Origin: an uncultured Poribacteria bacterium
GTDB lineage: Bacteria; Poribacteria; WGA-4E; PCPOR2b
DNA length: 64,000 bases
NCBI GenBank assembly: GCA_958296125.1
Contig: OY282444.1
Location: forward strand, 2,697,623-2,761,622
Reading direction: 5' to 3'
Positions 9,191-56,570 of the stretch are shown piece after piece (within the stretch, counting starts at the first letter, position 1; every line of letters starts with the position of its first letter). A program made the translations under genes and the position numbers. The notes under the pieces were generated by a model. That model had not been told where the DNA came from. It ran no database searches and saw nothing but the letters and a program-made list of their open reading frames with translations.

Positions 9191-9208
9191 CCTGGTCTCG
9201 GAACGGAC
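9191..9208 (+). repeat. Dispersed 18-bp repeat copy (CCTGGTCTCGGAACGGAC)
   Basis: Exact core match, intergenic, preceded by the GCTGCCCCGC module also seen at the 56533 locus. Confidence 0.7.
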
Positions 9209-9242
9209 TGAAGAATTAAATGACCCTACCTGATGGCTCCAG

Positions 9243-10748
9243 TTATTTCCCTTTCTTGAATATTCCGCGTATCGTTTGAATCAGGGTGCCTTCGGCAAGC
9301 CACTTGCCTGCAACGCGCCAAACAATGCTCGAAAACGTCGGATAAACGTGGATGATTCTCGCCAACTTCCGCAAGGGGATGCCGGCACTCATCGCCAAAA
9401 CAAACTCGTGGATGACTTCCCCCGCATTTGGTCCGACTAGGTGGACACCTAAGAGTTTGCCCGTCCAACGGGTCGCAACGACCTTGATGAACCCTTTCGT
9501 TTCTCCCTCAGCGACTGCGCGATCGACATCGTGTAGATCAACTCTGAAAACATCGACCGCCCCGTGCTTTTTGCGGGCTTCCGCTTTGGTGAGACCGCAC
9601 CGAGCGACCTCCGGATCGCAGAAAGTGGTCCAGGGGACGACGGAATAATCTATCGCACTAGAGCCGGGGAAGAAAATATTCCGAACAATCTGCGTCGCTT
9701 GAGAGGCCGCAACATGTGTGAAGAGGTAATGTCCAACCACATCGCCGGCAGCGTAAATATTTTCAACGGTTGTCTGCAACTTATTGTTGACCTCAACCCC
9801 CCTTTTTCCAACCTTGATGCCAATTTTCTCAAGCTCCAACCCTTCGATGTTTGGCTTCCGTCCCGCCGCAATCAGGATTCGATCGACGACGATTTCGCGC
9901 TCGTTCTCCGTATCCACTGCTTTGAGTTGGACGCGATACTCTTCCGCTGTTGAGGCGTGTTGTGGTTCCCAGATGGCTATATCCGGGTTGAGCTCTTCGC
10001 TAAGCGGGGGGGTAATCCTATCAATCTGAACGGGATTGGTATTTAAGAGGATTTCAACCCCATCTTCTCGAAGATAACTCAGCATTTTCTCGGAGACTTC
10101 GGTGTCCTCTTTCGTTAAAATCCGATCGCTGCGTTGCACAATCGTCACTTTCGCGCCCAGACGATGGAATGCCTGTCCCAACTCAACGCCGATGGGACCC
10201 GCGCCTATCACCAATAGCCGTTCGGGCAGTTGATTTAATTGCCAGACATTTTCACTGTCCAGATAATCGACGGAATCTATTCCGGGAATATGGGGGGCGG
10301 TTGGACGAGAACCTGTTGTGACGACGAATTTTTTGCTCTTGAGCGTGAGGGTTTGGTCGTTCTCCGTATCTTTAACGACGAAGGTTGTCGGCGACTCGAA
10401 ATGCCCTTCCCCGAAGATAACGTTTACGCCCATTTCACGGAAGCGTTCCGGATTATCATGCTCGTGCTCGATGGTGTGCTGGGTGCTGCGGACGTACTCC
10501 ATAACGCGTGCAAAATCCACCTGCGCGTCTTTCACGAGGACACCGTATTTTTCAGCTTCTTTGATGTAATGAGCAATCTTTGCTGACTTGAGGATGGCTT
10601 TCGATGGCACACACCCTGTCCAGAGGCAATCGCCCCCTAATCGGTGCTTCTCGACGAGGGTTGTTCTCACCCCTAGCTTCGCACCTGCCACCCCCAGAAC
10701 AAGGCCTGCGCTTCCTCCACCGATGATCGTTAGATCATATTCGTTCAT
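9243..10748 (-). CDS. FAD-dependent pyridine nucleotide-disulfide oxidoreductase (dihydrolipoamide dehydrogenase / mercuric reductase-like)
   Basis: N-terminal GxGxxG (IIGGGSAGL), redox-active disulfide GGDCLWTGCVPSK, second NAD-binding GAGPIGVE, C-terminal HVYPTFSS dimerisation motif. Confidence 0.8.
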   Translation of the reverse strand: MNEYDLTIIGGGSAGLVLGVAGAKLGVRTTLVEKHRLGGDCLWTGCVPSKAILKSAKIAHYIKEAEKYGVLVKDAQVDFARVMEYVRSTQHTIEHEHDNPERFREMGVNVIFGEGHFESPTTFVVKDTENDQTLTLKSKKFVVTTGSRPTAPHIPGIDSVDYLDSENVWQLNQLPERLLVIGAGPIGVELGQAFHRLGAKVTIVQRSDRILTKEDTEVSEKMLSYLREDGVEILLNTNPVQIDRITPPLSEELNPDIAIWEPQHASTAEEYRVQLKAVDTENEREIVVDRILIAAGRKPNIEGLELEKIGIKVGKRGVEVNNKLQTTVENIYAAGDVVGHYLFTHVAASQATQIVRNIFFPGSSAIDYSVVPWTTFCDPEVARCGLTKAEARKKHGAVDVFRVDLHDVDRAVAEGETKGFIKVVATRWTGKLLGVHLVGPNAGEVIHEFVLAMSAGIPLRKLARIIHVYPTFSSIVWRVAGKWLAEGTLIQTIRGIFKKGK

Positions 10749-11062
10749 TCGTTATCCCCCTCTTCGTTTGTGCTATGAGTATACTGCTAAGAGAAAAGTT
10801 TAACAAGTAGAGAAGATGCTTCAGATTGGGCAGACTTGGGCGTGGTTTTTCGAGATGAAGTTGTCGTTCAGACAGAGGGAGGAAAATATTAGATGGGTTG
10901 GCGAACTTTTGAACTGGCTCGCTTGGACTTCTGACATGGTCGGGAGGCTATTGTGGATTTCTTCGTCATTTTTATAGGGAGGTGCTGCTTGTGGTGAGCC
11001 ACACCCCGCTGGATGCGCCCTGACATCGAGTTATCAAGCGCATCCAGCATGTTGGTTGTGCT

Positions 11063-11545
11063 TTACATTCGACCTATAGATTTAATCCGCCCCCACAGGG
11101 CGAAGCGTTTGTCTTTCGGGTGAACTGCCACCGTGATTTCAATCGGATAGCCCGCCCTCCGCCATCTGGGAAAACCCCCTTCGAGCACTTTCACCCGCTC
11201 TGGGGGAAAACCAAACTCCTCTATTAACATTCGTGCCGCCCCGGCACTTGTGGCTTCCGCCGGTCAGCTTCAGTATAAAACAATCAGCCCATTTGCGGGA
11301 AGTGTTTGATGTCTCGATTCAATCTCATCCGGAAATGACATCGAGATAGCACCAGGAATATGTCCGACGTTGTAATCAATCTGACTACGCACATCAATTA
11401 GAGTCACATTCGCTTTGGCATCTAATAAACGTTTGAGTTCTGCCAAGGCAATCCGCTCCGGTTCAGCGGCAAATATCTGAACGAGTAATTGCGAGTAAAG
11501 GAACAACACAATTGCCCAAACAATGGCTTTGTTTAATCGTTTCAT
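11063..11545 (-). pseudogene. Periplasmic rhodanese-domain protein interrupted by tandem in-frame TGA codons at the catalytic-Cys position (pseudogene or possible Sec recoding)
   Basis: ORF 11270..11545 carries a signal peptide plus the rhodanese N-half and ends ...LIVLY. Same frame continues TGA-AGC-TGA, then PAEATSAGAARMLIEEFGFPPERVKVLEGGFPRWRRAGYPIEI, the rhodanese C-half, ending at 11063. Confidence 0.5.
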
Positions 11546-11633
11546 AAGTTAATCTCCTTGGTTGCGAATTGGCTTCAATCGTCGGTTCCTATTGCGTTGC
11601 CCTTTTGGGGCTTACGCAACCGTGAATCCCGAT

Positions 11634-13319
11634 TTAATTGAACTGCATCATCTCAACAGAGAACCACAGGGCCAAACTCCCCGTACGGTCATCATAGCCA
11701 CTTAGTGCTTCTCGAATGATGTAATCGTGTTCCGTTTCTAACGCGCCTGTCCCCGTACATCCATCAACCACATCGCCCGCTTCAGTAATCCTAGCTTTAG
11801 CCCCATTCCATAGAGCTTCTAGGGGGGGGAGATACGATTGATCCAGCAGTCCCAATTTAACCCCTCTGGCAATCCCGTAACCGATCATACAGGTGCTCGT
11901 GAGTTCTTGATAACTACCCGGTAACGTGATTACTTGGTGGTAACAACCCGATAGATTTTGGTGTTTTAACAACCCACTCAACAATTTCTCATAGGTCAAA
12001 AATATATCAGCGTGTAAGGGATGGAATTGCGGCAGATAGGTCAATGTTTCTGCAAGCCCTAAAACAGCGAATCCGTTTCCCCTGCCCCAATAAAAGGGGG
12101 TTGCTCTGTCATGCCAAAACAGGCCTGAAATCTGTTGTGTCCCCATTTCGACGAGGAAGTTGGTCAGGATATCTAGGTATTGCCCCTCTTGGGTCAACGC
12201 ATAACTCCTCCCCATCATTGACCCAAGCATGAACATATCCTCCGTTCTCCACTTCGGATCCGCCGGAGCGGGGGGATTTGCCCCACTCGAATCAAACCGA
12301 TTTGCCAGATCTAAGAGATAATTTTTGTATTTTGGGCCTTTGGTCACTCGAAACAGATCATCTGCCCATACCGCCCCGGCAAGTGAAGCGGAACCGGGGG
12401 CATCACCAAAACTGGTGGAGGGATCATCAACATAGGGATCGACAAGTTGAAAAATATCATCAGGCACGTCTTGATTCGTGTATTCTGCCAATCGAATTCT
12501 GCCGCTCACACCGACCCCTTGAATATAGTTAATCGGAGAATCTAGCTTATACCCAAACTGTGATGCTAACGCTTCGCTCACCTCTTGCGCGGTTCGATTC
12601 CTTCGTTTGCGGATGGCATCTGCGGCATGACTCGATGGAGGTTGATCCGTCGCTCTAGAATCTACCACTTTATGCAATAACTCAAGTGTCTTTGATACGA
12701 CCTGCTCCTTTGTTCCCGTTATCCTGACTCCGGGTGTCGATCCCAGATTAGATTCATGTTTCCGCCCCAACGCTCCGATTAAACTGTCGTTGGAAACAAG
12801 ACTCGCCGTATCCATATCAGTGATAAAAGCGGGAGAAGCCGCGTTGGGCGCAATCCGGATAGATTCTCCAAGAGACAACTCAATCACTAAATCCGGGGCT
12901 TGGTAGGACACCCACCGCCAGATGTATCTGCTCTCCGGTATTTCTGAATCAAAAAAGTAGTTTCCATCGGGCGGGTATCCATGCGTCAATTTCGTTTGAG
13001 CTTGAAGAGTTTGTAGATTACCTATATATGCGTCATAGTTCAAACAGGGAATATAACTGATTGATAGTGAGCTGAAATCATTAGAGTGGTCCGTAACTGT
13101 TTCAATTACGTCGAGTATTAACTGAACCTCACCATCAGTCCCGTTGACCCCTCCGATAATCAGTATTCGAGTACAATCCCCAGAAAAATCGTAAGCGTGT
13201 TTGCCGAGGATGACAGGGATTTGGTATCCATTTTTAGTTATCCCACAATAACTGATGTCCGAAGCAGCCAAATCTCGGCTTACCAAGTTGTGTATTGCCG
13301 ATTCCAATAATTTACTCAT
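11634..13319 (-). CDS. Glycoside hydrolase family 88/105-like (unsaturated glycuronyl hydrolase-like) protein with N-terminal domain of unknown function
   Basis: C-terminal half has WGRGNGFAVLGLAETL and surrounding alpha/alpha-barrel motifs typical of GH88/GH105. N-terminal ~300 aa unassigned. 4-nt overlap with the upstream PhyH gene. Confidence 0.55.
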   Translation of the reverse strand: MSKLLESAIHNLVSRDLAASDISYCGITKNGYQIPVILGKHAYDFSGDCTRILIIGGVNGTDGEVQLILDVIETVTDHSNDFSSLSISYIPCLNYDAYIGNLQTLQAQTKLTHGYPPDGNYFFDSEIPESRYIWRWVSYQAPDLVIELSLGESIRIAPNAASPAFITDMDTASLVSNDSLIGALGRKHESNLGSTPGVRITGTKEQVVSKTLELLHKVVDSRATDQPPSSHAADAIRKRRNRTAQEVSEALASQFGYKLDSPINYIQGVGVSGRIRLAEYTNQDVPDDIFQLVDPYVDDPSTSFGDAPGSASLAGAVWADDLFRVTKGPKYKNYLLDLANRFDSSGANPPAPADPKWRTEDMFMLGSMMGRSYALTQEGQYLDILTNFLVEMGTQQISGLFWHDRATPFYWGRGNGFAVLGLAETLTYLPQFHPLHADIFLTYEKLLSGLLKHQNLSGCYHQVITLPGSYQELTSTCMIGYGIARGVKLGLLDQSYLPPLEALWNGAKARITEAGDVVDGCTGTGALETEHDYIIREALSGYDDRTGSLALWFSVEMMQFN

Positions 13320-14347
13320 GCAACCTGCTCACTTTCAAATCCTTCAAACAGCGATGGGAAGAAACGATGGGGATCTCCGGGGTCACTAAAAAGGATCTCC
13401 TGACGGGGTGTCAGTTCCACATTCGCCGGTAGTTGTACACGTCGGGAGGTCCACACCATGTGCGACACACAATATTTATACAGCAGGGAGCGTCTCTCGT
13501 GCTTGCCGCGCCACGCTGCCGTTCCATGCGTCAGTGCCTCGGTAAATAGAATCACTGAACCGGCTGGCGCACTTGGGATAATCACGCACGGTGCATCTTC
13601 GGGAGACTGGTTTATCTGTTGAGGCAACTTAAAATTGCTTTTGTGGCTGCCGGGTATACAACAAAATCCACCATAGTCGGGCCCTGTGTCGGACAGCACC
13701 CATGTCACCACGACAAACCCGTTGGTGACTTGGTTGTCGCGGAAAGGGTAGTATTCCCCCGGTTGAGCACCAGAGGTTGAGGAGGTGGCACCGTAATCGG
13801 CGTGCAGGTGCCCCTTTGGCATCCCCTCACGCATATACATCCCGTAAATCCGATCCAGGCGAAAGCAGTCGCCCAACCGGAATCGAAGAATCGGCATAAT
13901 CTTTTGATGGGTCAGCAACTCGCAGAACGGTTTTCCCCATTCGAGAAATCCCGATCCGTCTGGTGCACTGCCAAATCTTTGAACCTTTCCCGGTGTGGGT
14001 AATTCTTGCTGGTCGATCAGCCGGTTGAGTGTTGCGAGTTCTTCTGGACTCAAGACATTTTCAATCACCAAGTAGCCTTGTAAATCGAATAGATACTGCT
14101 GCAGTTCAATATCATTCATAACGTTGTTCGCCTGTTGTCCCTGAGTTTCAAGCGGCTTCTCAAGGAGGGTGTTGTAATAGCTTGACTCTGTCACATTGAT
14201 TAGTGGCTTTTCAAAGATTTCTATCGTTCGTTTTTGTAATTCTTCCTTTTTTAGCTTTAAGTAATTAACGTGCTCAACACCCGCTGACACACCGGCATGT
14301 GCGGCAGACCCCCGTCGACGAGTCGCACTGTCGTGTTTGCCCCTCAC
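13316..14347 (-). CDS. Phytanoyl-CoA dioxygenase (PhyH) family Fe(II)/2OG oxygenase
   Basis: PhyH-like N-terminus (LQQYLFDLQGYLVIENVLS) and His/Asp...His iron triad region (HADYG...HGT). True start may be the internal Met at 14119. Confidence 0.75.
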   Translation of the reverse strand: MRGKHDSATRRRGSAAHAGVSAGVEHVNYLKLKKEELQKRTIEIFEKPLINVTESSYYNTLLEKPLETQGQQANNVMNDIELQQYLFDLQGYLVIENVLSPEELATLNRLIDQQELPTPGKVQRFGSAPDGSGFLEWGKPFCELLTHQKIMPILRFRLGDCFRLDRIYGMYMREGMPKGHLHADYGATSSTSGAQPGEYYPFRDNQVTNGFVVVTWVLSDTGPDYGGFCCIPGSHKSNFKLPQQINQSPEDAPCVIIPSAPAGSVILFTEALTHGTAAWRGKHERRSLLYKYCVSHMVWTSRRVQLPANVELTPRQEILFSDPGDPHRFFPSLFEGFESEQVA

Positions 14348-14362
14348 GGATTTTCACCATGC

Positions 14363-14587
14363 TCATTCCTTTAGCTCATTCGCTTTGAGCGCGGTAAATT
14401 CGCTCTCGGCATCCTCAACGAAAACCCCGAAGCGTCCTTCCTTATAGTCGTGAACAGCATGCGAGATTACTAGCTTGTCGTTCAGGTAAACGTCTAAGAT
14501 GTGCCTGTGGAGCAGGCCTTTTAAAGCCAGGGGCCGATTATAGTCAACATCGGGCGTAAGCTTCATCGCCATCGAGCGGGAGACCAC
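14363..14587 (-). pseudogene. Orphan fragment resembling the C-terminal beta-sandwich of GH32/GH43-type hydrolases
   Basis: 74-aa ORF (HILDVYLNDKLVISHAVHDYKEGRFGVFVEDAESEF) resembles the terminal strands of GH32/43 accessory beta-sandwich; no upstream catalytic domain present. Confidence 0.3.
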
Positions 14588-14693
14588 CCATGGCCTAGGG
14601 GAGTGCCACAGCGAGATGACACCGTTCCCAGGCTCTAAACGCAGGAAGTAACCCCCGCGCCCCTCGCATTGTCCACGTTTCCTGTTTCCCGTT

Positions 14694-15494: not shown

Positions 15495-15781
15495 GGCAAC
15501 TGCTCCGTATCTAGAAAACAGATTTTCAATAATAAATTTTCATGTTAGTGCCGAGTTTAGCACAGAAGATTCACTCCGTCAAGTCCAAAAGTAAATTGGC
15601 ACACCTTTCGTTTGACAACCGGATCACAAGCGATTTGATGCCGGTTAAGAACCCTCATCCACACACACAAATTTTGTTGAGTTGCGATTCCAAACGTGGT
15701 AAGATACCCTTCGGTTGGCTTTGAGGGTTGCAGCGAGCGACTGCGAAATTTTAATGCAATATAAGAAAGGGAGAAATAACC

Positions 15782-16624: not shown

Positions 16625-16720
16625 TAACCAATGCTGCTAGTTTGCAACCGTTAATAAGATGAAACGTGATCGGTTTCTGTTGCACGATTTCTTAACATGA
16701 GCCAAGATTGAAAGGAGCAA

Positions 16721-17464: not shown

Positions 17465-17470
17465 CGGGTG

Positions 17471-18811
17471 TCAAAGCTCGGCTTCCAATTGACTCAACCC
17501 CTCATCAATGATGGTGATTACCTCATCGATTTGGCTGCGCGTGATGATGAGCGGCGGATAAAAACGTAAATCATCACCGTTCACCCAATCCGCTACACCG
17601 CCGGCACTCCCCACAGAAAGCCCCTTGTCCAGCAGAATCTTGTTGAGACGTTTGTGAAAGCCAAGCGATGCGGGGAAGGGTTCCTTCGTCTCTTTGTCGC
17701 GTACCAGTTCGATACCGAGAATCAGTCCGAGCCCCCGAATCTCGCCGACGCTTGGGTGGGTGTCTAACGCGCTTGCCTTTTGTAGTAGATACTCGCCCAT
17801 CTGCGCGGTATGCTCAAGAATCCCTTCCTCCTCGATGATGTCCAGCACCTCCAGTCCAACCCGCATTGCTATGGGATTATTGACATAGGTGAAGACGTGG
17901 GCGAAGGGTGCGCCGCCCGCAGCAAAAGTATCACGAATACTGTCCCGAATAATTACGCCACTCAAAGGAGAATAGCCACTACTGGCTGCCTTTCCAAAGA
18001 CAATCATATCCGGAACAACATTCCAGTGCTCAATGGCGAAATATCTGCCGCTGCGCCCGAAGCCGGTGATGATTTCATCTGCAATAAATAGAACATCATA
18101 TTTATCGCAGATTTCGCGGACGAGTGGGTAGTAATCCTTGGGCGGTATCGCCGCAGCAACCCCGCCGAGCACCAACGGTTCCGCCACGAAGGCCGCCACA
18201 TTCTCCGGACCGGTCTGCAAGATCATCTGCTCCAGTTCATGGGCACAGGTCAGGTTGCATTTTCCTTCACATCCCGCAAACGCGCAGCGATATGGATAAC
18301 AAGGCGCGATATGCGGAAAATTGGGAAGCAAAGGCGCGAAAGGAGCGCGCATCCCCGGTGCCCCTGTGACTCCCAAAGCGCCAAGTGTCGCGCCGTGGTA
18401 GCCGCGCCAGCGGGCAATGACTTGGTGCTTCTGTCCCTTCCCACGCTGTATATGGTATTGCCGGGCAATCTTGATCGCGGTTTCAATCCCCTCCGAACCG
18501 CCCGAAACAAAGTAAGCGTGGTTCAGGTCGCCGGGGGCTATTGCGGCAATCCGATCGGCTAAGTCGAGTGCCGGTTGGGTCGTAAAATGGGTAGCGAAGC
18601 AATAGGCGAGTGTCTTGCCTTGCTCTGCCATCACATCCGCTATACGCTGCTGTCCGTGTCCCAAGGTGACATTACTCGCACCGGCGGCACCGTCGATGTA
18701 GCGTTTACCCGTTTCATCATAGAGGTAGATCCCCTCCCCGCGCACCAGTAGGGGATAATTGTAACTCAAATCGCGGTGGAACAGCGCGTTTTTTGTATCG
18801 GTATTTGACAT
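17471..18811 (-). CDS. Class III (omega) aminotransferase, PLP-dependent
   Basis: LLVRGEGIYLYDETGKRYIDGAAG... characteristic class-III AT N-terminus, with the PLP-lysine region. Start chosen at ATG 18811 after GGAGACAGC RBS; the longer ORF reaches 18853. Confidence 0.8.
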   Translation of the reverse strand: MSNTDTKNALFHRDLSYNYPLLVRGEGIYLYDETGKRYIDGAAGASNVTLGHGQQRIADVMAEQGKTLAYCFATHFTTQPALDLADRIAAIAPGDLNHAYFVSGGSEGIETAIKIARQYHIQRGKGQKHQVIARWRGYHGATLGALGVTGAPGMRAPFAPLLPNFPHIAPCYPYRCAFAGCEGKCNLTCAHELEQMILQTGPENVAAFVAEPLVLGGVAAAIPPKDYYPLVREICDKYDVLFIADEIITGFGRSGRYFAIEHWNVVPDMIVFGKAASSGYSPLSGVIIRDSIRDTFAAGGAPFAHVFTYVNNPIAMRVGLEVLDIIEEEGILEHTAQMGEYLLQKASALDTHPSVGEIRGLGLILGIELVRDKETKEPFPASLGFHKRLNKILLDKGLSVGSAGGVADWVNGDDLRFYPPLIITRSQIDEVITIIDEGLSQLEAEL

Positions 18812-41497: not shown

Positions 41498-41692
41498 TTA
41501 ACTTTCAAGTAGGAAAAGTTGCTTGGGCGTGGTGGCAATCTGTTGCAGTATTGGATCGTCAGGTAACGGCACTCGTGCAAGCTCTTTGGGTTCAATCTTG
41601 TTAAGTCCACCCCCATAAGTTCGCCCTTCATAAAGCAGATATTCATCCTTAGTCTGCTTCAGCAAATCGAATAACTGAGCAAGGAAGTCCAC
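41498..41692 (-). pseudogene. C-terminal remnant of a DNA methyltransferase-like gene (split by IS)
   Basis: 64-aa fragment (…YEGRTYGGGLNKIEPKELARVPLPD…) resembles C-termini of Eco57I/N6-adenine MTase family proteins. The upstream part of the same frame family lies at 43092..43541, beyond the TnpB element. Confidence 0.35.
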
Positions 41693-41737
41693 GTTGTTTT
41701 TACAGATAGTGGCTTTAGCCCGTAAAGCCCAAGTATT

Positions 41738-41755
41738 GTCCGTGCCGAGACCAGG
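41738..41755 (-). repeat. Dispersed 18-bp repeat copy (reverse orientation)
   Basis: GTCCGTGCCGAGACCAGG is the reverse complement of CCTGGTCTCGGCACGGAC. Confidence 0.7.
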
Positions 41756-41834
41756 TATACTTGGGATATAAGTTTCGCTTTAGCGTTTTTGCTTGATACG
41801 GTTGTCAAAATATGTTACAATTCTTTTGTCTTTC

Positions 41835-41875
41835 GTGGGAGAGTCTTACCCCTATCACACGATAGGGTCTCCCAC
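41835..41875 (+). other. Imperfect subterminal hairpin (putative IS200/IS605 left-end structure)
   Basis: GTGGGAGA...TCTCCCAC inverted repeat with inner CCTAT/ATAGG pairing, 40 bp upstream of the TnpB start. Confidence 0.4.
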
Positions 41876-41947
41876 ACCCTGTAAGACGGACATGAAAGAC
41901 AGAAAGACACCCCCATGAAAACCTACAAGTTCAAGATGTATAGCCAT

Positions 41948-41966
41948 CCCTGGTCTCGGAACGGAC
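41948..41966 (+). repeat. Dispersed 18-bp repeat copy inside tnpB
   Basis: CCCTGGTCTCGGAACGGAC; translated as PWSRNGH in the tnpB frame. Confidence 0.7.
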
Positions 41967-42129
41967 ACGGAAACGGGGAGTTGCACAAAAACATAGACGG
42001 TCACGCGCATGTATGGAATCATTGCGTTGCCCTTCAGCGTCGCTACTATGCTATCTATGGCAAATATATCGGCAAGTTTCGATTGATGAAACACCTCTCT
42101 AAACTCAAGAAACTCTCTCGTTTTGCCCA

Positions 42130-42147
42130 CCTGGTCTCGGAACGGAC
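42130..42147 (+). repeat. Dispersed 18-bp repeat copy inside tnpB
   Basis: CCTGGTCTCGGAACGGAC; translated as LVSERT, a different codon phase from the 41948 copy. Confidence 0.7.
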
Positions 42148-42482
42148 TTGGAATCAGTTGCCAAGCCAAGCGATTCAGGATGTAGCCGCTCGCATTGATA
42201 AAGGCTACAAAAAGATGTTTGAAGATCGTGCCGCGGGCAAAAAGTGTGGCAGACCCCGTTTCAAGCCCCGTCGTAAATATAAGTCGTTCACATTGGTAAA
42301 AGCGGGCTGGAAACTTCTACCCAACAACCGAATTAAAATCGGGAAACGGGTCTACCGCTATTTCAAGTCCCGTGAGATACAAGGCACTCCCAAGCGGTGC
42401 ACCGTGAAACGGGATGCCGAGGGTGATGTTTATATCTGTGTGCTAACTGACTATGTAGAACCTGACCAAAACCGAGCTATGC

Positions 42483-42500
42483 CTGGTCTCGGCACGGACA
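42483..42500 (+). repeat. Dispersed 18-bp repeat copy inside tnpB
   Basis: CCTGGTCTCGGCACGGAC; translated as PGLGTD, a third codon phase. Confidence 0.7.
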
Positions 42501-42649
42501 CGGGTCATATCGCAGGCTTCGATTTTGGTCTCAAACGGTATCTCACAGGGTCAAACGGACATGATATAGAATCCCCTCTATTTTTCAAACGCAGTCTTAA
42601 CGCTATCAAACGGTTCAACCGCAAACACAGCACCAAACGTACCTGTCCT

Positions 42650-42667
42650 GTCCGTGCCGAGACCAGG
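42650..42667 (-). repeat. Dispersed 18-bp repeat copy inside tnpB (reverse orientation)
   Basis: GTCCGTGCCGAGACCAGG; translated as VRAETR. Confidence 0.7.
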
Positions 42668-43091
42668 CGGAACGGGAAAGGTTCAAAGAATCGGGGACGC
42701 GCCCGATTGGATTTAGCCCGTAAACACCATAGAATCGCTAACCAGCGTGAGGACTTCCACTGGAAACTTGCACACCAACTCACCGATAGATATGATGAGA
42801 TACGGCCCCGATAAGATCGGGATTCAGAGCAACTTGAGGACTTGAACCTCAGAGGCATGAAAGCCCTTTGGGGACGCAAGGTTAGCGATTTAGGCTTTGC
42901 CGACTTTGTTAGGAAGTTAGTGTATATCGCTTCTCAAAAAGGCGTTAAAATCACGTTCATTGATAAGTGGTATCCTTCCAGTAAGACTTGCTCGGTTTGC
43001 GGGGCAGTGAATGAAGCGTTAAATCTGCGAGATAGAACATGGCAATGCCCAAGTTGCCACACACAGTTAGATAGAGATCGCAACGCCGCGA

Positions 43092-43541
43092 TTAATATCT
43101 ACAGGGTGGGGGCATCCACCCCTGGTCTCGGCACGGACCTTTCAGGAGAGGTCGTAAGTCCCGCTTCGGTTGGCTAACCTCGTCGATTGAACAATTCCAC
43201 TCCCAAAGGAATAGGTGAGAATCCCAATCCTTTAGGTTTGGGAGTATGTCAAAAGCTTGCTGCACCTCTTGATTCGGATAAAGCATCAGATAGACATTTG
43301 GGCTAGTTGCCTGCGAATAGTTTCGGAAGAACCGCAGGCCAGAATCCCCTGACTTGGTGCGAGACATATAACTGCATAAAATAGGAGCCGCCGGTCGATT
43401 TTCCTGTTTGAACCATGGCCGTCGATGGCGAGTTATGTACCGGTCCGCAAACCCTTGCGATTTCCCCCAAGCGAGGTAAACCTTTAGTGACGGGTAGGCT
43501 TCGACTGCGCTCTCCTCCAAATCACAATCTAACAGTACCAA
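43092..43541 (-). pseudogene. Remnant of a DNA N6-adenine methyltransferase-like gene (target-recognition/C-terminal region), 5'-truncated and split by the TnpB element
   Basis: …PILCSYMSRTKSGDSGLRFFRNYSQATSPNVYLMLYP… resembles the post-catalytic region of Eco57I/TaqI-like MTases. No catalytic N-terminal domain upstream (an ADH gene follows). 3' end runs into the IS right end. Confidence 0.4.
43121..43138 (+). repeat. Dispersed 18-bp repeat copy inside tnpB 3' end
   Basis: CCTGGTCTCGGCACGGAC; translated as PGLGTD. Confidence 0.7.
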
Positions 43542-47246: not shown

Positions 47247-47285
47247 CTCGTGCCCCAACGGTGAAGATTGGGATGGAGGTGGAAT

Positions 47286-48734
47286 ATGGCAACTCGATCG
47301 GCGGAGGAGTACAAGACGGGCTTAAACGATGGTCGCGCTCTGTTTTTTAAGGGGAATCGCGTGGAGGATGTCACCCGCCATCCAGATTTGGGGGTTGGGA
47401 TGGAGCACGCCTCCCTCGATTTTGCACTCGCTGAGGATGCGGCGTATCAAGATTTGATGACCGTCAAAATTCCTGAAACGGGCGAAACAATCAGCCGGTA
47501 TTTCGTAAGCCCTACCAACACAGGCGATCTGCTAAAACGGCGCGAGATGATTGAAACCAGCACTCGGCTTGGCGGCGGGGTAGTGTTGCTAATCAAGGAG
47601 ATTGGAACGGACGCACTCTTTGCCCTCTCCTTGGTTGCCAAACGGATTGATGAACAGTATGGTACAGACTACCTCAAGCGGGTGGAGGCGTATCATCAGC
47701 ACTGTCAGCAGGAAGATCTCAGCATGGCGGTTGCACAAACTGATGTGAAGGGCGATCGAAGCCTTGCTCCTTCCGAGCAGACACATCCGGATTACTACGT
47801 GCGTGTGGTTGAAGAGCGGGCGGATGGGATAGTTGTTCGAGGGGCGAAAGCGCATACCACCTGCGCTCCCTACGTGGACGAAATCATTGTGCTGCCAACA
47901 CGGAATCTGACGGAACAGGATAAAAATTACGCTGTCGCCTTTGCTGTCCCTGCCAATGCCCCCGGCTTGAAAATGATTGTCAGTCCTTTTGGTGCTTCGT
48001 CATCCAGCGATTTTCATAACCCCGTCAGTTCCCATCACCGGATGATCGAAAGTCTTACAATCTTCGACGATGTTTTTGTTCCAAGGGAGCGGGTCTTCAT
48101 GAGTGGGGAGTGGGATTTCGCGGGCGGATTAGCCACCACCTTCGTTCAATTCCACCGATTTACCGCCATCTCTTACAAGCCACCGCTGTGTGACCTCCTG
48201 ACCGGTGCTGCCGCATTAATCGCCGAGCACAACGGCATCAGCCGCGCAAGCCATGTTCGGGAGAAGTTGATGCACCTGATTAACTATGCCGAAACGGTTC
48301 GCGCTCTAAGTAAAGCCGCCGCTGTCGATTGCGTCCAGATTGATGAAGTGGCGATTCCCAATTCGATCCTCACCAACGTTGCTAAGTTTTACTTTGCTAG
48401 CAACTACCATCAGATGGTCAGTTACGTGCAGGATATCGCCGGCGGGCTTGTGGTCACCGGACCTTCAGAGGAAGATGTCACAAACCCTGAAACCCGAGAC
48501 TATATCGAAAAATACTTGGGTGGTGCCGCGGGTGTTCCAACGTTAGAACGCCTGAAACTGGTGAACCTGATTCGGGACCTGACGGCTTCTGACTTTGGCG
48601 GTTACAATGAACTTCTTGCCATCCATGCCGAAGGTTCCCTTGAAGCGCAGAAGATCACCATTTATCGGGAGTATGACTTGGAACGGTGTAAATCCTTGGC
48701 TAAACAAGCGGCAGGGATAGGGGATAACGCTTAG
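47286..48734 (+). CDS. 4-hydroxybutyryl-CoA dehydratase / vinylacetyl-CoA isomerase (AbfD)-like, HpaB-family flavoprotein
   Basis: Near-identical blocks to AbfD as recalled from memory, not from a database search: DVKGDRSLAPSEQ..., EDGIVVRGAKAH, DDVFVPRERVFM. Confidence 0.8.
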   Translation: MATRSAEEYKTGLNDGRALFFKGNRVEDVTRHPDLGVGMEHASLDFALAEDAAYQDLMTVKIPETGETISRYFVSPTNTGDLLKRREMIETSTRLGGGVVLLIKEIGTDALFALSLVAKRIDEQYGTDYLKRVEAYHQHCQQEDLSMAVAQTDVKGDRSLAPSEQTHPDYYVRVVEERADGIVVRGAKAHTTCAPYVDEIIVLPTRNLTEQDKNYAVAFAVPANAPGLKMIVSPFGASSSSDFHNPVSSHHRMIESLTIFDDVFVPRERVFMSGEWDFAGGLATTFVQFHRFTAISYKPPLCDLLTGAAALIAEHNGISRASHVREKLMHLINYAETVRALSKAAAVDCVQIDEVAIPNSILTNVAKFYFASNYHQMVSYVQDIAGGLVVTGPSEEDVTNPETRDYIEKYLGGAAGVPTLERLKLVNLIRDLTASDFGGYNELLAIHAEGSLEAQKITIYREYDLERCKSLAKQAAGIGDNA

Positions 48735-49596: not shown

Positions 49597-49603
49597 TCGC
49601 CGG

Positions 49604-49867: not shown

Positions 49868-49903
49868 TTTAGGTTTCGCGCCCCCTTTCTGATCTATACT
49901 TTT

Positions 49904-50638: not shown

Positions 50639-50719
50639 TCCGTTTTGTGCTCCTCATTTGCAGCGTGTATGTAGGGCTTCAGGTACACAATCTGGTCCTG
50701 CACGCGGATAGGTCGCGCC

Positions 50720-52165
50720 TCATGTATTCATTTCGATTCCCAAATTTTTAATCTTCTGCAATAACGTTGTACGGCTGATTCCCAAAAACTTTGCTGATTT
50801 CGTCTGGTTGTCTTGGACTTCTTCAAGGAGGCACTTGATCAACGTGCGATCAACGGCATCAATGACTTCGTCGTAGAGCGCGTCATGTGCTTGTGCCACA
50901 GCGTCTTTGACAGTTTCTTTCAATACAGATTCGAGTGCCATTTCTAGGCGAGATTGGCTTGATTGTTGCCTTCCTTTGTAATTCAGAATTTCGGATGAGA
51001 GATGTTCTGGCAGGAGGACATCTGTCCGTGAAAGGACCACCGCGCTTTTAACGGCGTTCTCTAGCTCCCTCACATTCCCGGGCCAATCGTACTGCTGCAA
51101 GAGTTCTAAACAGCGCGGCGAAACCCCTCGGACGTTTTGCCCAAGTTCGACACTGACTGTCTGTAGAAAGTGGTTGACTAGCAGTGAGATATCCGCAGCC
51201 CGCTCGCGCAGTGGTGGGAGGTTAATTGAAAGCAGGTTGAAGCGGTAGTAGAGATCTTCACGGAACCTGCCCAACCGGACCGCTTCAGCGAGGTCCTGAT
51301 TCGTTGCAGCGATGATACGCACATCTACTTTCAGCGGGCTGGTGCCGCCCAGTCTTTCGATTTCTTGTTCCTGTAAAACCCGTTGTAGTTTCACTTGTAG
51401 CACCGGGCTCATGTTACTGACTTCATCCAGAAACAGCGTACCCCCATCTGCGAGTTCAAATCTGCCGGGCTTGCCTTTGGTGCTCGCCCCCGTAAATGCG
51501 CCCGCTTCGTAGCCAAAGAGTTCGCTTTCAAGCAGGGCATCGGGAAGTGCGCCGCAGTTGACAGGGACGAAGGGTTTATCCTTTCGTGTGCTGTTGGCAT
51601 GGATCGAGTGTGCGATTAACTCTTTTCCCGTCCCATTTTCACCTTCTATCAGCACCGTGACGGTGTTGTTCGCCATCATCCCGATTAGCTTATAAATCTC
51701 CTGCATCTGTGGACTTTTCCCGACCAAGCGATGTTCCTGTGGCTGCGCCGGCAGTTCAACCTCCACCGAAGGGAGTTCAATAGGCGGCATTTTACTGCGC
51801 TCAACTTGCATCTGTGTGACGCGATCGATAATTGCTTTTACCTGATCCAGATCGATTGGCTTGGGGATAAAATCAAACGCATGCAGCTGCATAGCTTGGA
51901 TGGTGGTCTCCACGCTGTCATACGCTGTCATCACGATCACGATTGCCTCCGGCTGAAGGATTTTAATCTGCTTCAATGCCTCAAGCCCATTCATGCCGGG
52001 CAATCGCACATCAAGCAGAACGATATCAGGAGTTTCCAACTGAATCTTTCGCACGCCTTCCTCTGCATTGTTGGCAATAATGGGGCGGTGGCCCTCGTCT
52101 GTTAAAAATTGCTCGAAAGCCCAGCAAATTTTTTCGTCATCATCAATGACTAATATATTTTTCAT
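50720..52165 (-). CDS. Sigma-54-dependent response regulator (NtrC/Fis family)
   Basis: Receiver domain (ILVIDDDE...D), AAA+ sigma54 activator core (GENGTGKE, GAFTGA, ESELFGYE), C-terminal Fis HTH. Start at ATG 52165. Confidence 0.85.
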   Translation of the reverse strand: MKNILVIDDDEKICWAFEQFLTDEGHRPIIANNAEEGVRKIQLETPDIVLLDVRLPGMNGLEALKQIKILQPEAIVIVMTAYDSVETTIQAMQLHAFDFIPKPIDLDQVKAIIDRVTQMQVERSKMPPIELPSVEVELPAQPQEHRLVGKSPQMQEIYKLIGMMANNTVTVLIEGENGTGKELIAHSIHANSTRKDKPFVPVNCGALPDALLESELFGYEAGAFTGASTKGKPGRFELADGGTLFLDEVSNMSPVLQVKLQRVLQEQEIERLGGTSPLKVDVRIIAATNQDLAEAVRLGRFREDLYYRFNLLSINLPPLRERAADISLLVNHFLQTVSVELGQNVRGVSPRCLELLQQYDWPGNVRELENAVKSAVVLSRTDVLLPEHLSSEILNYKGRQQSSQSRLEMALESVLKETVKDAVAQAHDALYDEVIDAVDRTLIKCLLEEVQDNQTKSAKFLGISRTTLLQKIKNLGIEMNT

Positions 52166-52254
52166 GGCGAACCCCATCTTATCACGCTCTGGCAAAACCT
52201 TCAACCGAAAAAGAATGTCACAGATCGCGAGTCTGTTTTGCCTAATTTGTTATT

Positions 52255-54753
52255 TTACCGATTCTCCTTCTGCCTCATTTCGACCAATACGGGTCCTGAG
52301 TTCAGAAAGTCCAATTCGATTGCCTGATGAGCGTACCCCGCCGCCTCAACCACAATACGATATCGGCGCGCACGAACCCCGTGGAAAACAGCTTTTCCAG
52401 TTCGATTCGTTACTAACGGAAAGGTGTCATCTAACGCAACCCTCGCGCCAGCGACCGGCTGCTGCGAAATTCCATCAACAACTTGAATTTCAAGCTCCGT
52501 TTGAGGTAAGACTTCACCTATTGTGCGGGGGGTGAGTCCCTCTTCATCGGGTTGAGCGTTTTTCAGAAACTTCCACGTTCCCAAGAAGATTGCGTAAGCC
52601 TCTTGTGTGATTAGGGTAGGGGAGGCCACGGGATCATGAAGATGTGGGTGATTGATAGAACGGATCTCGAGTGCAAGTGCGATTTTGTTAGTTGACCGAA
52701 TCTCTGGGGATTTCTCATCCCCAAACGTTTTAATTGGGGTCCCAAAAAGTACCATGTTAAATCCCTCAAGTATCACCTTGAGGTAGTCTTCCGCGACCTG
52801 ATTACCCGGGTAGCCCGCGGCGATTACCGATGGCTCACCTTCGACCCAAACACCGTGATCAATCCGGAGGTAGTATCCGTCATGTTTGACAGCGTTGATT
52901 GTTTTGACCCGTTTTGAGGCAGGGATCTTCTCATCTTTCTCTCGAACAAGGTAAACGTTTGCCCCGGCAAGCTCCAGCATCTCCTTGAGGAATTTGACCA
53001 CGGCGAGGTTGAGATCTGCGGAGGCAACAGAATTGATGGCAGGCATCCCTCGTTCTGAACCGCCATAGCGTGCGTCGAGGACAAAGACTTTCCCAATAAG
53101 CGCACCGTCTGCAATCGGATGGAGTTGGGGCTGGAGGACCTGCGCGCTGTTTGACCGCGTCTCGGTCTTCAGTTGGAAGTTGTAATAGCCAGTCTTTGAA
53201 ACGTTAAGGGTTGCGTCCCCCGGCGAAACGTTATTAAAAAAGAAGTGTCCATCCGGATTGGTCATCGTGCTTCTGTTCTTTGCTCTCATCAGTCGCACGG
53301 TTGCATCTGAGACGATGTTCCCAGAGACATCGTGGACGCAGCCTTGAACAATACCGCCACGAATTTCCTCAAAACGGATGGCGATGACTTCTGACCTGTT
53401 CTTGTAAACCACTTTCACCTGTGCGAGACCTTCCTCTGGCTGCGTCGCGTCCGTGTGCAAGTAAAATCGCGCTTCCCCGTTCTTTGCGGATCCCTTTGTT
53501 TCAACAAGCTGCCCAAGCGATGTCTGAGCATGAATGAGCTCGTCATCTGCGATTGGTAGACCATCCTTGTCCAGAGCGGTGGCAGTGATTCCGACATAGC
53601 TCGCACCATCGGGGGGAAGGACCTTAGTCCATGCGCGGAGTTTCAGCTTTGCGGCGGGTGGGGCGACTTTGAACCATTGCCCGCTCGGCAAGCTATGATT
53701 CCCGTAGTAGTTGACAAGATTGGTTTCAACAAGATGTACACCGTTGGAGAGCGGCTTCGGTGGGATAATCACAATAAGATCTTCAACGCGGAGATACTGG
53801 TGGGGAACGACAATGCCATCGAGTTTGACGCGGATGGAATCGGAGAAAACCTGTTGCCGCTTGAGCATCCACGCGCCTCGCTCATGCAAGCCATCTGCTA
53901 CACGAATCTCGATGCGCGGTGTCTTAGTTTCGATGGACGATTCCGGCGACGGTGTCAGCAGGACCCCCTTCGGAAACCCCGCTGCAACGTAACGGGCAAC
54001 CCCAAGAAAATAGCCGTAAGCCTCGCGCTTGTTGTATGATTTCTCTTTCAAACGTTTCTCCTCTTCGGGGTCGGAATAAAACGATGCTTCACACAAAATG
54101 GCGGGCCCCTTCGTCCGACGTAGTACGCCGAATCCCGAAGGTATTACCAATCGATCCGAATAGAGTCCTGTTGGGGTAAATTGCGGCAGACGCAGTGCAT
54201 CAGCGACGCTCTGCTGAACGTAGCGGGCGAGATCTAAACTGGTGCGGGAATCATCTGCATCTTGATGATACCATGTGGAGGTGTAATTGGTTTCGGGATC
54301 GCTGAAAGAATTATGGTGGAGGGAAATAAAAAAATCAACGGCGTTCTGATTGGCGAGCTCACTACGGTCCGGGATGCTGACGAAGGAATCATCGGTGCGC
54401 GTCATGAAAACAATCGCACCCGCTTGCCTCAGAAATTCGCGTAGATACAGTGCCACGCGCAGGTTCACCTCTGCCTCACGCAGCCCGGTTGGTCCCCGCT
54501 TATAATTCGGTAGGTGAGCCTGCCCACCATGCCCTGGGTCCAAGCAGATTTTGATTCCTTCAAGGTAACGGGCGTAAGGCGGAATCGAGAAATTGGCATG
54601 GGGCAGCTTGTGCCATTCATTGAGTTCATCAAGTACTTCGTGTTTTTCACCGCAGCCAGTCAATACGATTGATACAATGCAGATGAAGGACAGGAGAGGT
54701 TTCAGACGTATCATTCTGTTGCAGCCTCGCAGAGAAAGCGTGCCGCCTCTCAA
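52255..54753 (-). CDS. N-acetylmuramoyl-L-alanine amidase (Amidase_3) multidomain protein with CarboxypepD_reg-like domains
   Basis: Signal peptide. Canonical amidase_3 core (ICLDPGHGGQ...HHNSF). Second, degenerate amidase_3-like module (VFVLDARYGG...). Carboxypeptidase-regulatory-like beta-sandwich segments. Confidence 0.75.
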   Translation of the reverse strand: MRGGTLSLRGCNRMIRLKPLLSFICIVSIVLTGCGEKHEVLDELNEWHKLPHANFSIPPYARYLEGIKICLDPGHGGQAHLPNYKRGPTGLREAEVNLRVALYLREFLRQAGAIVFMTRTDDSFVSIPDRSELANQNAVDFFISLHHNSFSDPETNYTSTWYHQDADDSRTSLDLARYVQQSVADALRLPQFTPTGLYSDRLVIPSGFGVLRRTKGPAILCEASFYSDPEEEKRLKEKSYNKREAYGYFLGVARYVAAGFPKGVLLTPSPESSIETKTPRIEIRVADGLHERGAWMLKRQQVFSDSIRVKLDGIVVPHQYLRVEDLIVIIPPKPLSNGVHLVETNLVNYYGNHSLPSGQWFKVAPPAAKLKLRAWTKVLPPDGASYVGITATALDKDGLPIADDELIHAQTSLGQLVETKGSAKNGEARFYLHTDATQPEEGLAQVKVVYKNRSEVIAIRFEEIRGGIVQGCVHDVSGNIVSDATVRLMRAKNRSTMTNPDGHFFFNNVSPGDATLNVSKTGYYNFQLKTETRSNSAQVLQPQLHPIADGALIGKVFVLDARYGGSERGMPAINSVASADLNLAVVKFLKEMLELAGANVYLVREKDEKIPASKRVKTINAVKHDGYYLRIDHGVWVEGEPSVIAAGYPGNQVAEDYLKVILEGFNMVLFGTPIKTFGDEKSPEIRSTNKIALALEIRSINHPHLHDPVASPTLITQEAYAIFLGTWKFLKNAQPDEEGLTPRTIGEVLPQTELEIQVVDGISQQPVAGARVALDDTFPLVTNRTGKAVFHGVRARRYRIVVEAAGYAHQAIELDFLNSGPVLVEMRQKENR

Positions 54754-54756
54754 ATC

Positions 54757-55299
54757 TTACGAATCTATCGACTCAGAATCTTTTTGTAGTGTCTTCTGGT
54801 AGAGTGCAGTTCCGTAAAACTCATAGGAAGCAGCCGTATCTGGGACATCAACGACATGGACTGTAAACCGAGCGGGCACACCCTTTTCCGGTAGGTAATC
54901 ACGAAAAAAGTTACTATACGCTTGAGCGTAAGCTTTGCGCAATCGTTCTTGTTCTGCTGCGTAACCCGCCGGGTCAATGAGCGGATTTGGGGCTTTGGGT
55001 TGACAACCAAAGGCGTGAACTTCAATGAAATCTATATCCTTCAGAGAATCGCAAATCCCCGCCTCTTTCAACCAAGATTCCCAGCTTTTGAATACCAATG
55101 GGATCTCCTGTTCCGGATCCATTGAAATCAGTTCATTGAGGTTCAGCACCCCTTTCGCCGAATATCCTCCTGTTAGCCCCGAAAAATAAATTTTCAGATC
55201 CCCGTCCGGCAACGTCTCGGTGACCAAAGGAGACAACACCGGATGATCGCCTTGGTAATAATAGGTCAACTTCCCACGTTTTTTGACATTAAATGCCAT
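54757..55299 (-). CDS. Hypothetical protein
   Basis: 180-aa ORF immediately downstream of the amidase (4-bp gap); no recognisable motif. Confidence 0.45.
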   Translation of the reverse strand: MAFNVKKRGKLTYYYQGDHPVLSPLVTETLPDGDLKIYFSGLTGGYSAKGVLNLNELISMDPEQEIPLVFKSWESWLKEAGICDSLKDIDFIEVHAFGCQPKAPNPLIDPAGYAAEQERLRKAYAQAYSNFFRDYLPEKGVPARFTVHVVDVPDTAASYEFYGTALYQKTLQKDSESIDS

Positions 55300-55673
55300 C
55301 GTCCGTTCCTCTGTTAAATATGAACATTAAAAAAAAACATCGAGGACAAATGCTCGATGCTTGAACTTGTGTGGGTGCCAAAAATTGATCTTTAACTTCA
55401 AACGGTTACGTACTGAGAAAGCCAAATATGCCCTGCGAGCACCATTAGCGTTTCTCTATCGTTCTGCCTACGAAGAAGATTAAGATTCCAACCACGAGGG
55501 AGGCTATCTCTGCGCCCATAGCACCGCCTTCACTCAAGCCATAGGGGTTGACACACCCAACATATAACCCCGCTCCCAGAAGCGACATTCCTATCAATTC
55601 TAATACTTTGCCGATGATAAACACTGTGAGCTCCGCGCACTTGAATCTTGAGGCATTGGTGTTAATCGCCTAA

Positions 55674-56378
55674 CTAATAAAGCTTTTTGATACGCCCCCA
55701 TTGTATCGCTTTCTGGTTTGCATCTAGCTTTATATTCGCTGTAAATACCAGATCTGCAAGAGCATCTTCCGGTTCAGTTTGACCGACCGGGCCCCAGCGA
55801 AGTTGGTGGTTTAAACGATTACCATCCATATCATAATAGTAAATTCCGAAACTGATCGTCTCCTCTTTTTTGGGTGTAAGGCCCAAGTCAAAACTCAATT
55901 CTACAGATTGCCCTGCATTTCCCCAAGTGACCAACATCCGCTGAGAATCAGCCAGCACGATGTCTTTTCCAACGGGGAGGGTGTAACGATAGAGGTCGCT
56001 CTGTTGGCCTGAATGCTCTACATCTAGATAGATCTCTAGGCGGTCTTGCAGAGTGAGCTTTTCGTGAGCGGTTTCAATTTGGTCATCGGTCAGTTCAACG
56101 GCTATGTAGAGAGAGGCGTTGCGCCATACAGCAGCAAAGGTGCCTTTGAAATCACTCGATTCAGCCCAACGCCGATCCTTTTTGACATCATGGTCTAGGA
56201 CAGCAGATGTAGCATCTTCCCATGCCGGGTCGTCGAGAAATCCATCAACGACTGGGGCGACCTCTACCAGTTTAGCTTTATATTTGAACTCCGCACCTGT
56301 CTGCGGATCTATAATACGTGCGGATCCGTAGCTGGCTGCAATCAGTATAATCAATATACAAAAGGATAACTTTTTCAC
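55674..56378 (-). CDS. Secreted protein, carbohydrate-binding family 9-like/DOMON-like (tentative)
   Basis: Signal peptide; VDGFLDDPAWEDA...LYIAVELTDD pattern resembles CBM9-like sugar-binding modules. Confidence 0.4.
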   Translation of the reverse strand: MKKLSFCILIILIAASYGSARIIDPQTGAEFKYKAKLVEVAPVVDGFLDDPAWEDATSAVLDHDVKKDRRWAESSDFKGTFAAVWRNASLYIAVELTDDQIETAHEKLTLQDRLEIYLDVEHSGQQSDLYRYTLPVGKDIVLADSQRMLVTWGNAGQSVELSFDLGLTPKKEETISFGIYYYDMDGNRLNHQLRWGPVGQTEPEDALADLVFTANIKLDANQKAIQWGRIKKLY

Positions 56379-56532
56379 AGTTTGATCGCCCGCCTTAGAT
56401 ACAAATTAAACCTTTAGGTATAGTAGACCTAATTGGTAGTATACTAGCCAGTATATTGAGTGTCAAGAAAAAATTAGGACTTACTAGGGTCATTTAATTC
56501 TTCGGACTGCGGGGGGATTAGAGGGGGGCATT

Positions 56533-56570
56533 CCCTGGTCTCGCCTGTCCCGCTCCGTGCCGAGCCAGGG
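56533..56570. repeat. Hairpin variant of the dispersed repeat (CCCTGGTCTCG...CGAGCCAGGG)
   Basis: Inverted arrangement of the CCTGGTCTCG module, flanked by direct repeats GGACTGCGGGG (56506, 56573) and modules shared with the 9020..9210 region. Confidence 0.6.

Follow-up and report, generated by a model that had tools for sequence, protein, structure and literature searches.

To our knowledge, mobile repeats only a few tens of nucleotides (nt) long have been reported essentially from cyanobacteria alone, and their mechanism has been open since 2008. In that year, Elhai et al. (Genome Res 18:1484) reportedly described the repeats SDR1-8 of Nostoc punctiforme and other heterocystous cyanobacteria, with units of 21-27 nt. 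This work on small dispersed repeats (SDRs) is cited in PMC3116915 and PMC4390886, and the latter places SDR5 between nucleotides 3 and 4 of the HIP1 palindrome. Repetitive extragenic palindromes (REPs) comprise GTAG- and CGTC-tagged superfamilies, some of them located within small palindromes and some in frame in open reading frames (ORFs) (PMC3733652); REPINs are treated in PMC3116915. Here, we analyse an 18-nt repeat, CCTGGTCTCGGMACGGAC (hereafter the 18-mer), found in the window, a 64,000-nt stretch of DNA from an uncultured bacterium of Candidatus Poribacteria (assembly GCA_958296125.1, contig OY282444.1, positions 2,697,623 to 2,761,622 of the forward strand). Diverse targets, some of them recurrent, have gained the 18-mer in its precise length of 18 nt, in one orientation or the other and with no duplication of the target; it is very probably a small mobile insertion unit.

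Occurrence of the 18-mer in the window and in Poribacteria

The window holds seven exact copies of the 18-mer against 0.00 expected from dinucleotide-preserving shuffles (Table 1). It is the sole strongly repeated 12-mer family of the window, and a window scan allowing up to three mismatches added no further copies. An earlier note on this DNA, made from the letters alone, had described a repeat with one A/C position in at least eight copies. Both statements hold, the eighth being the decayed copy at 56553-56569, and all seven exact sites were correctly located except that two of them (41948 and 42483) were one base off. A further decayed copy placed near 59008 proved to be just the 9-mer GGAACGGAC, which is not above chance; it also occurs solo at 47604 and 8692 (minus strand), and its C variant GGCACGGAC is found solo at 17679 (minus strand). 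Six of the seven exact copies fall within a hot spot covering 2.4% of the window, an insertion sequence (IS) of the IS200/IS605 family (binomial p about 1e-9). Rfam and tRNA scans of the window gave no matches.

An exact-match scan of one genome per species (596 Gb) returned at least 88 loci. Of the 88 listed, 67 derive from 14 assemblies of Candidatus Poribacteria, which are sponge-associated bacteria, with up to 19 listed from one chromosome. The remaining 21 are single matches in unrelated, mostly GC-rich genomes and are at chance level, because about 35 chance matches are expected in 596 Gb; two matches among the 2.9 million viral contigs of IMG/VR were also taken as chance. The 18-mer is lineage-wide in, and specific to, Candidatus Poribacteria, and the window can be aligned with a Poribacteria chromosome across a syntenic stretch at about 86% identity. 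As the earlier note had supposed, the repeat is not confined to the TnpB family: across the 14 assemblies, most copies are non-coding, and they are found between genes, in the loops of hairpins, within other small repeats and in two genes outside IS elements. Our literature search found nothing linking Poribacteria to such repeats, the 11-mers of the motif turning up solely as unrelated primers, and no earlier description of the 18-mer.

Table 1 Coordinates of the 18-mer copies and associated features in the window, and sites of inserts in the tnpB paralogs of the same genome (L054 and L045, homologous IS copies from other Poribacteria loci)
Feature	Position	Strand	Description
Empty member of hairpin family ACCGAGTTT-loop-AAACTCGGT	119-171		7-nt loop (window 133)
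18-mer, A variant	9191-9208	+	exact match; intergenic, within mosaic of other small GC-rich repeats (9000-9228)
tnpB-only IS200/IS605-family element, ~1.55 kb	41700-43252	+	left end approximate; DNA alignment with L054 and L045
18-mer, C variant	41738-41755	-	apex of IS left-end hairpin, stem 41728-41736 / 41757-41765
tnpB	41915-43177	+	one frame, one in-frame TAA; Pfam OrfB_IS605 and Cas12f1-like TNB
18-mer, A variant	41949-41966	+	tnpB site a, translated PWSRNG; exact 18-nt gap in L054 and L045
18-mer, A variant	42130-42147	+	tnpB site b, translated LVSERT; exact 18-nt gap in L054 and L045
18-mer, C variant	42482-42499	+	tnpB site c, translated PGLGTD; exact 18-nt gap
36-nt insert	42641-42676		tnpB site d, translated TCPVRAETRRNG; 9 nt, reverse 18-mer, 9 nt; 36-nt gap in L054 and L045
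18-mer, C variant	42650-42667	-	tnpB site d, translated VRAETR; within 36-nt insert
27-nt insert CCCCGATAAGATCGGGATTCAGAGCAA	42806-42832	+	second small-repeat family; 27-nt gap in L054 and L045
18-mer, C variant	43121-43138	+	tnpB site f near C terminus, translated PGLGTD; 18-nt gap
Conserved IS right end, ...GGGAGTATGTCAA	43240-43252	+	DNA alignment with L054 and L045
10-nt 5' half of 18-mer	56534-56543		adjoins decayed reverse copy, within mosaic 56485-56600
Decayed 18-mer	56553-56569	reverse	1 substitution and 1 deletion
tnpB, window copy			inserts at a, b, c, d, f and left-end hairpin
tnpB paralog P0001			inserts at a, e
tnpB paralog P0002			inserts at c, d
tnpB paralog P0011			inserts at b', f

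Filled and empty sites, and repeated insertion into tnpB

When the 18-mer was deleted from each copy and the resulting junction was searched for, at least ten unrelated repeated contexts were found both filled and empty. The difference was always exactly 18 nt, in either orientation, and no target duplication was seen at these pairs. At L078, a filled and an empty copy agree with 0 mismatches across 28 flanking nt. In the window, the intergenic copy at 9191-9208 has a related empty junction, gccccgcc|cgaagaattaaatg, in L019 (4 mismatches in 28 nt), and removal of the copy in the IS left-end hairpin leaves a perfect 9-bp stem centred on the junction, unmatched by any nearby control position. 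A terminator-like hairpin family, ACCGAGTTT-loop-AAACTCGGT, is represented by 22 empty copies with loops of 7-8 nt and by six filled copies, from other Poribacteria genomes, with loops of 26 nt, in which the 18-mer sits at the 4|4 centre; in L035, the same central site holds a 69-nt nested composite. Another small palindromic repeat is split by the 18-mer at CCC|GAT..ATCGGG in 10 of 35 distinct contexts.

Its length of 18 nt and the lack of stop codons in all six frames of both variants allow the 18-mer to survive inside open reading frames. Two ORFs outside IS elements stay open with a copy in frame: one carries VRSETR within a C-terminal domain like that of the type IX secretion system (T9SS), conserved in two species (L044, L064), and the other, of the Wzy_C family, PFRDQ in a loop (L003). 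The 18-mer was also considered as the footprint of a larger element, with half-sites around a cargo, and this was rejected: solo 9-nt halves occur at chance frequency and flanking pairs were not found.

The tnpB gene of the window has been struck several times. Its comparison partners, L054 and L045, are homologous IS copies within the retrieved Poribacteria loci, and their alignment opens clean 18-nt gaps opposite sites a, b, c and f, a 36-nt gap opposite the copy at site d and one further gap, of 27 nt. As every insert length is a multiple of three, the gene stays in one frame. The earlier note had seen five copies in a single TnpB frame, translated in three phases and both orientations, and had concluded that they cannot be a conserved protein motif. 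Both points are borne out: neither of the homologous IS copies carries the 18-mer, nor do 117 of the best 120 TnpB homologs, and without the inserts the protein has 375 aa, the modal lengths of the best homologs being 375 or 378 aa. These 120 (79-86% identical) are the best of 6216 homologs at E<=1e-30, and just three of them, P0001, P0002 and P0011, contain 18-mer-encoded peptides. A further entry, P0121, is identical to the window ORF, and the three insert-bearing homologs lie on the same contig as P0121; they are therefore paralogs in the window's genome. All three are intact ORFs despite their inserts. In the window copy, the single in-frame TAA (42812-42814) belongs to the 27-nt insert of another family. 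The notion of a mobile repeat that invaded a dead IS gene and spacers stands as to the insertions, although the gene is broken only by that other element. In further Poribacteria genomes with the 18-mer at other places, the tnpB genes are clean, so the invasion of tnpB is specific to the window's genome; a metagenome scan with the TnpB protein, yielding five distant loci on short contigs, was uninformative.

Across the four tnpB paralogs of this genome, at least eight distinct 18-mer sites can be counted. Among the aligned homologs, only P0001 has the insert at site a, while the insert at site b is missing in 10/10 aligned homologs, with no 18-mer peptide at that position in the best 120 of the 6216. 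Site c lies five codons upstream of the RuvC-I aspartate motif GFDFG. At site d, where the aligned homologs show a 12-aa gap, the outer halves of the insert, ACCTGTCCT and CGGAACGGG, resemble a diverged forward 18-mer cut mid-way by a reverse 18-mer, and, judged from these letters, the site may represent one copy nested within another. A similar arrangement, CCTGTCC followed by the reverse copy, is present at 56544-56569.

The distribution of inserts among the paralogs bears on the most serious rival explanation, in which the 18-mer is immobile, arose once or a few times and spread by recombination or gene conversion among larger repeats and by duplication of its carriers. The sharing of sites (a with P0001; c and d with P0002; f with P0011) is incompatible with a single tree, and therefore implies that some sites were hit more than once, that inserts were lost precisely or that gene conversion took place; conversion would give just such a pattern, and many copies do reside within multi-copy composites (families A, B and D). 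However, no clear mosaic structure was detected among the tnpB paralogs, which differ by 10-14% at the protein level. Moreover, at least 18 different, unrelated targets share identical 18-nt boundaries, and the flanks have no homology between contexts. Each filled loop of the terminator-like hairpins has kept the same loop sequence as its empty counterpart (TTTC|TTGA, TTTC|GGAA, TTTC|GGCA); donor flanks were therefore not co-converted, which argues for separate insertions. Spread by conversion and carrier duplication alone is thus an unlikely account. Hitch-hiking and gene conversion clearly contribute to the spread of the 18-mer, yet they cannot explain its range of targets.

The 18-mer shares its surroundings with other small repeats. 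The 27-nt insert in tnpB belongs to a second family, of 26-27 nt, with the consensus CCCCGATAA(G)ATCGGGATTCARAGCAA and relatives in about 25 Poribacteria loci, which consists of a hairpin CCCGAT-loop-ATCGGG and a tail ATTCARAGCAA. In another composite, it forms a clean insertion at GCCG|CTGG (filled in L007, L024 and L070, empty for example in L002), and by sequence comparison this family shows the same clean-insertion behaviour as the 18-mer. Its two comparable targets resemble each other (CSG|CTKGA). Palindromes of the form CCCGAT..ATCGGG are abundant in the Poribacteria loci. In the tnpB of OZ244950 (L045, about 2160-2200), the stretch coding for RuvC-I (GFDFGLK) is replaced by the palindrome CCCGATAGATCGGG, translated GFDPDRSG; small palindromic repeats therefore strike tnpB in another genome too. 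The loci further contain hairpins of about 130 nt that resemble miniature inverted-repeat transposable elements (MITEs), with the 18-mer near their centre. In L012 (1455-2480) and L085, direct repeats of such a hairpin, with ends AGGACTGACG / CGTCAGTCCT and the 18-mer near the hairpin centre, enclose a two-gene, toxin-antitoxin-like cassette whose second ORF resembles a PIN-domain toxin by eye. Several abundant repeats in the loci L002-L088 start with GTAG (GTAGTTGCCCGATTCATCGGGC, GTAGGGGTTGGG, GTAGGGGCGAGG, GTAGGTGCGGTTT, GTAGGTCGATTTT), and these GTAG heads suggest that Poribacteria genomes also host classical REP/RAYT-type families.

Within the window, the mosaics at 9000-9228 and 56485-56600, the latter with the decayed copy, are related to each other and represent rearranged sets of small-repeat modules. 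The shared accessory modules on which the idea of a composite element was based are real, but they are independent, nesting repeats, and the 18-mer is self-contained. The hairpin variant reported at 56533-56570 is correct in part: it comprises a decayed reverse copy and a 10-nt half, but shuffled sequences fold as well as the region 56500-56600 does (z = +0.91). At 9051-9131, the first mosaic contains a unit of 27 nt, AATYCCCYBGCCTGYGCTACCCYYCTT, three times in tandem, the other strand of each beginning with GTAG (GTAGCGCAGGCGAGGGAATTAAG...). Two further observations concern ORFs. The IS seems to interrupt a short ORF on the minus strand (41498-41700 and 43253-43541), and the joined halves give only a weak match, which fails the Pfam cut-off (E 0.045), to M.Eco57I_C, a domain found at the C terminus of M.Eco57I-type methyltransferases. 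In the ORF 59226-60062, a 169-nt direct repeat (59342-59510 and 59657-59825; 315 nt apart and 74% identical) seems to reflect the duplication of a segment within the protein.

Anatomy of the 18-mer and its possible mode of movement

In the 18-mer, a tail of 4 nt, CCTG, is joined to a bulged mini-hairpin of 14 nt, GTC-T-CG[GMA]CG-GAC, whose triloop has the A/C variable base in its middle. Among the eight distinct variants found in the loci, each single substitution is at an unpaired position (2, 4, 8 or 12). The sole stem change, from G5:C18 to C5:G18, is compensated; it occurs at two loci, in which both M variants are represented. In total, 40 of 40 pair cells are still paired; 17 shuffles out of 500 reach this value, and pairing in slid registers amounts to 5-40%. 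The conserved pairing suggests, on a small sample, that the mini-hairpin matters.

Based on the filled and empty sites and on this anatomy, we consider it somewhat more probable than the alternatives together that the 18-mer represents a tiny mobile element of Candidatus Poribacteria which is non-autonomous and depends for its movement on an enzyme recognising the mini-hairpin. Such an enzyme, encoded by the host or by an IS, would act in trans, probably on single-stranded DNA. An HUH/Y1-type nuclease would be the leading candidate by analogy with REP/RAYT systems and with the ends of IS200/IS605 elements, although the assignment to an HUH enzyme in particular is tentative and less probable than not. 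Further spread would come from copies riding larger repeats, such as IS copies and MITE-like hairpins, and from gene conversion between these.

Several results weigh against this proposal. The mini-hairpin, which answers the expectation of a REP- or MITE-like fold only in part, is thermodynamically weak (a 5-bp bulged stem, -1.2 kcal/mol as DNA), its covariation comes from two copies only, and it is a single hairpin where the IS200/IS605 mechanism uses two. The Y1 transposase of RAYT type anticipated by the earlier note did not appear: tblastn with IS200 TnpA, ISHp608 TnpA and the Escherichia coli RAYT, using query sequences that may be inexact, found no Y1/RAYT homolog, either in the window or in a small sample of Poribacteria loci totalling 536 kb. 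Across 35 distinct contexts, no conserved 4-5-nt target adjoins the insertion, and there are only tendencies towards C at -1 (23/35) and at -4 (25/35). With local GC skew as a proxy for replication direction, no orientation bias was seen (23/46 copies on the locally G-rich strand). A hairpin apex as the general target was rejected as well, because just 3 of 34 distinct contexts have the 18-mer at a loop or palindrome centre; it holds for the terminator-like hairpins, the IS left-end hairpin and L033. Finally, the truly independent insertions are fewer than the copies, because many copies sit in larger multi-copy repeats, and the loci were collected by exact match, so that the homogeneity of the family cannot be read from them.

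A different form of mobility, which we regard as improbable, would make the 18-mer and the 26-27-nt family substrates of a new machinery that inserts an oligonucleotide composed of a tail and a mini-hairpin, with no duplication of the target, where DNA is broken or single-stranded. It might act at the tips of hairpins, on intermediates of IS transposition and at set points within small palindromes, and the activity could represent a new use of an HUH enzyme or a templated break repair.

A still more doubtful explanation regards the 18-mer as a repair scar. At nicks or breaks, a telomerase-like reverse transcriptase or a primase-polymerase would extend 3' ends by a fixed sequence copied from an RNA or DNA template, and the 18-mer would accumulate where DNA is fragile, as at hairpin tips and in IS DNA. 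This would cover the exact length, the occurrence in both orientations, the lack of target duplication and of any consensus at the target, the apex cases and the IS hot spot, and the C-rich bases to the left of the insert, together with ACGG to its right at two tnpB sites, could represent priming microhomology. However, this account has neither a template locus nor a reverse transcriptase candidate nor a known bacterial precedent, would require a separate template for the 26-27-nt family and leaves the conservation of the mini-hairpin unexplained.

It is very improbable that the 18-mer is a word under selection for some function, such as protein binding, DNA uptake, regulation or termination, and owes its enrichment to selection or biased conversion, in the manner of HIP1, uptake sequences or Chi, instead of to insertion. 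Such words arise by substitution with unchanged length, whereas every comparison here shows an 18-nt indel, and the tnpB copies, in three phases and both orientations, have no obvious common function. The identity across species is very high with flanks that are 14-35% diverged, an estimate biased by exact-match ascertainment, and there are copies in terminator-like hairpins; inserted copies may have a secondary function. The last explanation, adapter or linker contamination or an assembly error, has nothing specific in its favour beyond the GGTCTC (BsaI-type) site contained in the 18-mer and can practically be dismissed, as the repeat is found in 14 assemblies whose accession and contig styles point to different projects and assemblers (k141-style short-read, PYIZ, chromosome-level OZ/OY), at orthologous positions in different species and always in phase with the surrounding ORFs.

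Comparison with known small repeats

The 18-mer is apparently among the smallest mobile DNA elements seen in bacteria and provides a case from a second phylum, independent of the cyanobacterial one and documented unusually cleanly by dozens of filled/empty pairs, boundaries exact to 18 nt, a target at the loop centre, a conserved mini-hairpin and, within one genome, multiple strikes in one IS family. If the reading as a substrate of new machinery were true, it would be the smallest mobile DNA unit known and a tractable second system after the cyanobacterial SDRs. Since many complete Poribacteria chromosomes exist, its copy number can be correlated with gene content to seek the enzyme. By adding six codons with the frame kept, the 18-mer inflates and diversifies ORFs, including the tnpB/omega-RNA loci that are mined as genome editors, and it can mislead annotation and homology-based length expectations in Poribacteria genomes.

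The DNA uptake sequence (DUS) of Neisseria and the uptake signal sequence (USS) of Haemophilus are over-represented words that arise without length change. With HIP1, the 18-mer has in common that a short exact word is enriched lineage-wide, also in genes (PMC5861425, PMC4390886). It is not a HIP1- or DUS-type word, because its presence always constitutes an indel. Nor is it a MITE, because terminal inverted repeats and target duplication are lacking; its length of 18 nt likewise differs from the approximately 50-500 bp of MITEs. Elements of the IS200/IS605 family move by peel-and-paste, which requires a hairpin at each end and a fixed target of 4-5 nt and favours the lagging strand. The 18-mer resembles them and their miniature derivatives, the palindrome-associated transposable elements (PATEs), in its precise boundaries, the lack of target duplication and the presumed recognition of a hairpin, and most window copies lie in an element of this very IS family; the 18-mer differs in lacking a second hairpin, a fixed target and an orientation bias. 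Rickettsia palindromic elements (RPEs) are palindromes of roughly 100-150 bp. They too are selfish and lie in frame in genes that stay open (PMC3733652), but the 18-mer adds six codons only and thus falls short of RPE size.

REPs are imperfect palindromes with stable stem-loops, and a Y1 (RAYT) transposase gene, typically bordered by REPs, goes with them. The likeness to REPs consists in a short tag followed by a hairpin, a high copy number, lineage specificity and a presumed mobilisation in trans. In contrast to REPs, the 18-mer measures 18 nt rather than 20-40 nt, occurs as single units and not as inverted doublets, and has a bulged, very weak hairpin of 5 bp. Its tag is CCTG instead of GTAG or CGTC, and the reverse strand reads CGTC only if the next base is G, as in 14 of 35 contexts.

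Like the SDRs, the 18-mer is tens of nt long, dispersed in near-identical copies, precisely inserted in conserved sequence and nested in other repeats, for example in the loop of L035, and thus shows the features by which the SDR class is operationally defined. The position between nucleotides 3 and 4 of CCCGAT..ATCGGG parallels the splitting of HIP1 by SDR5 between its nucleotides 3 and 4 (PMC4390886). On the other hand, the 18-mer occurs in another phylum, has a shorter unit of 18 nt, is probably unrelated to the SDR families in sequence, is repeatedly found in frame in tnpB and in ordinary genes, and is inserted exactly at the loop centre of a hairpin family. In kind, the 18-mer is closest to the cyanobacterial SDRs and the REPs, and it is probably a member of neither.

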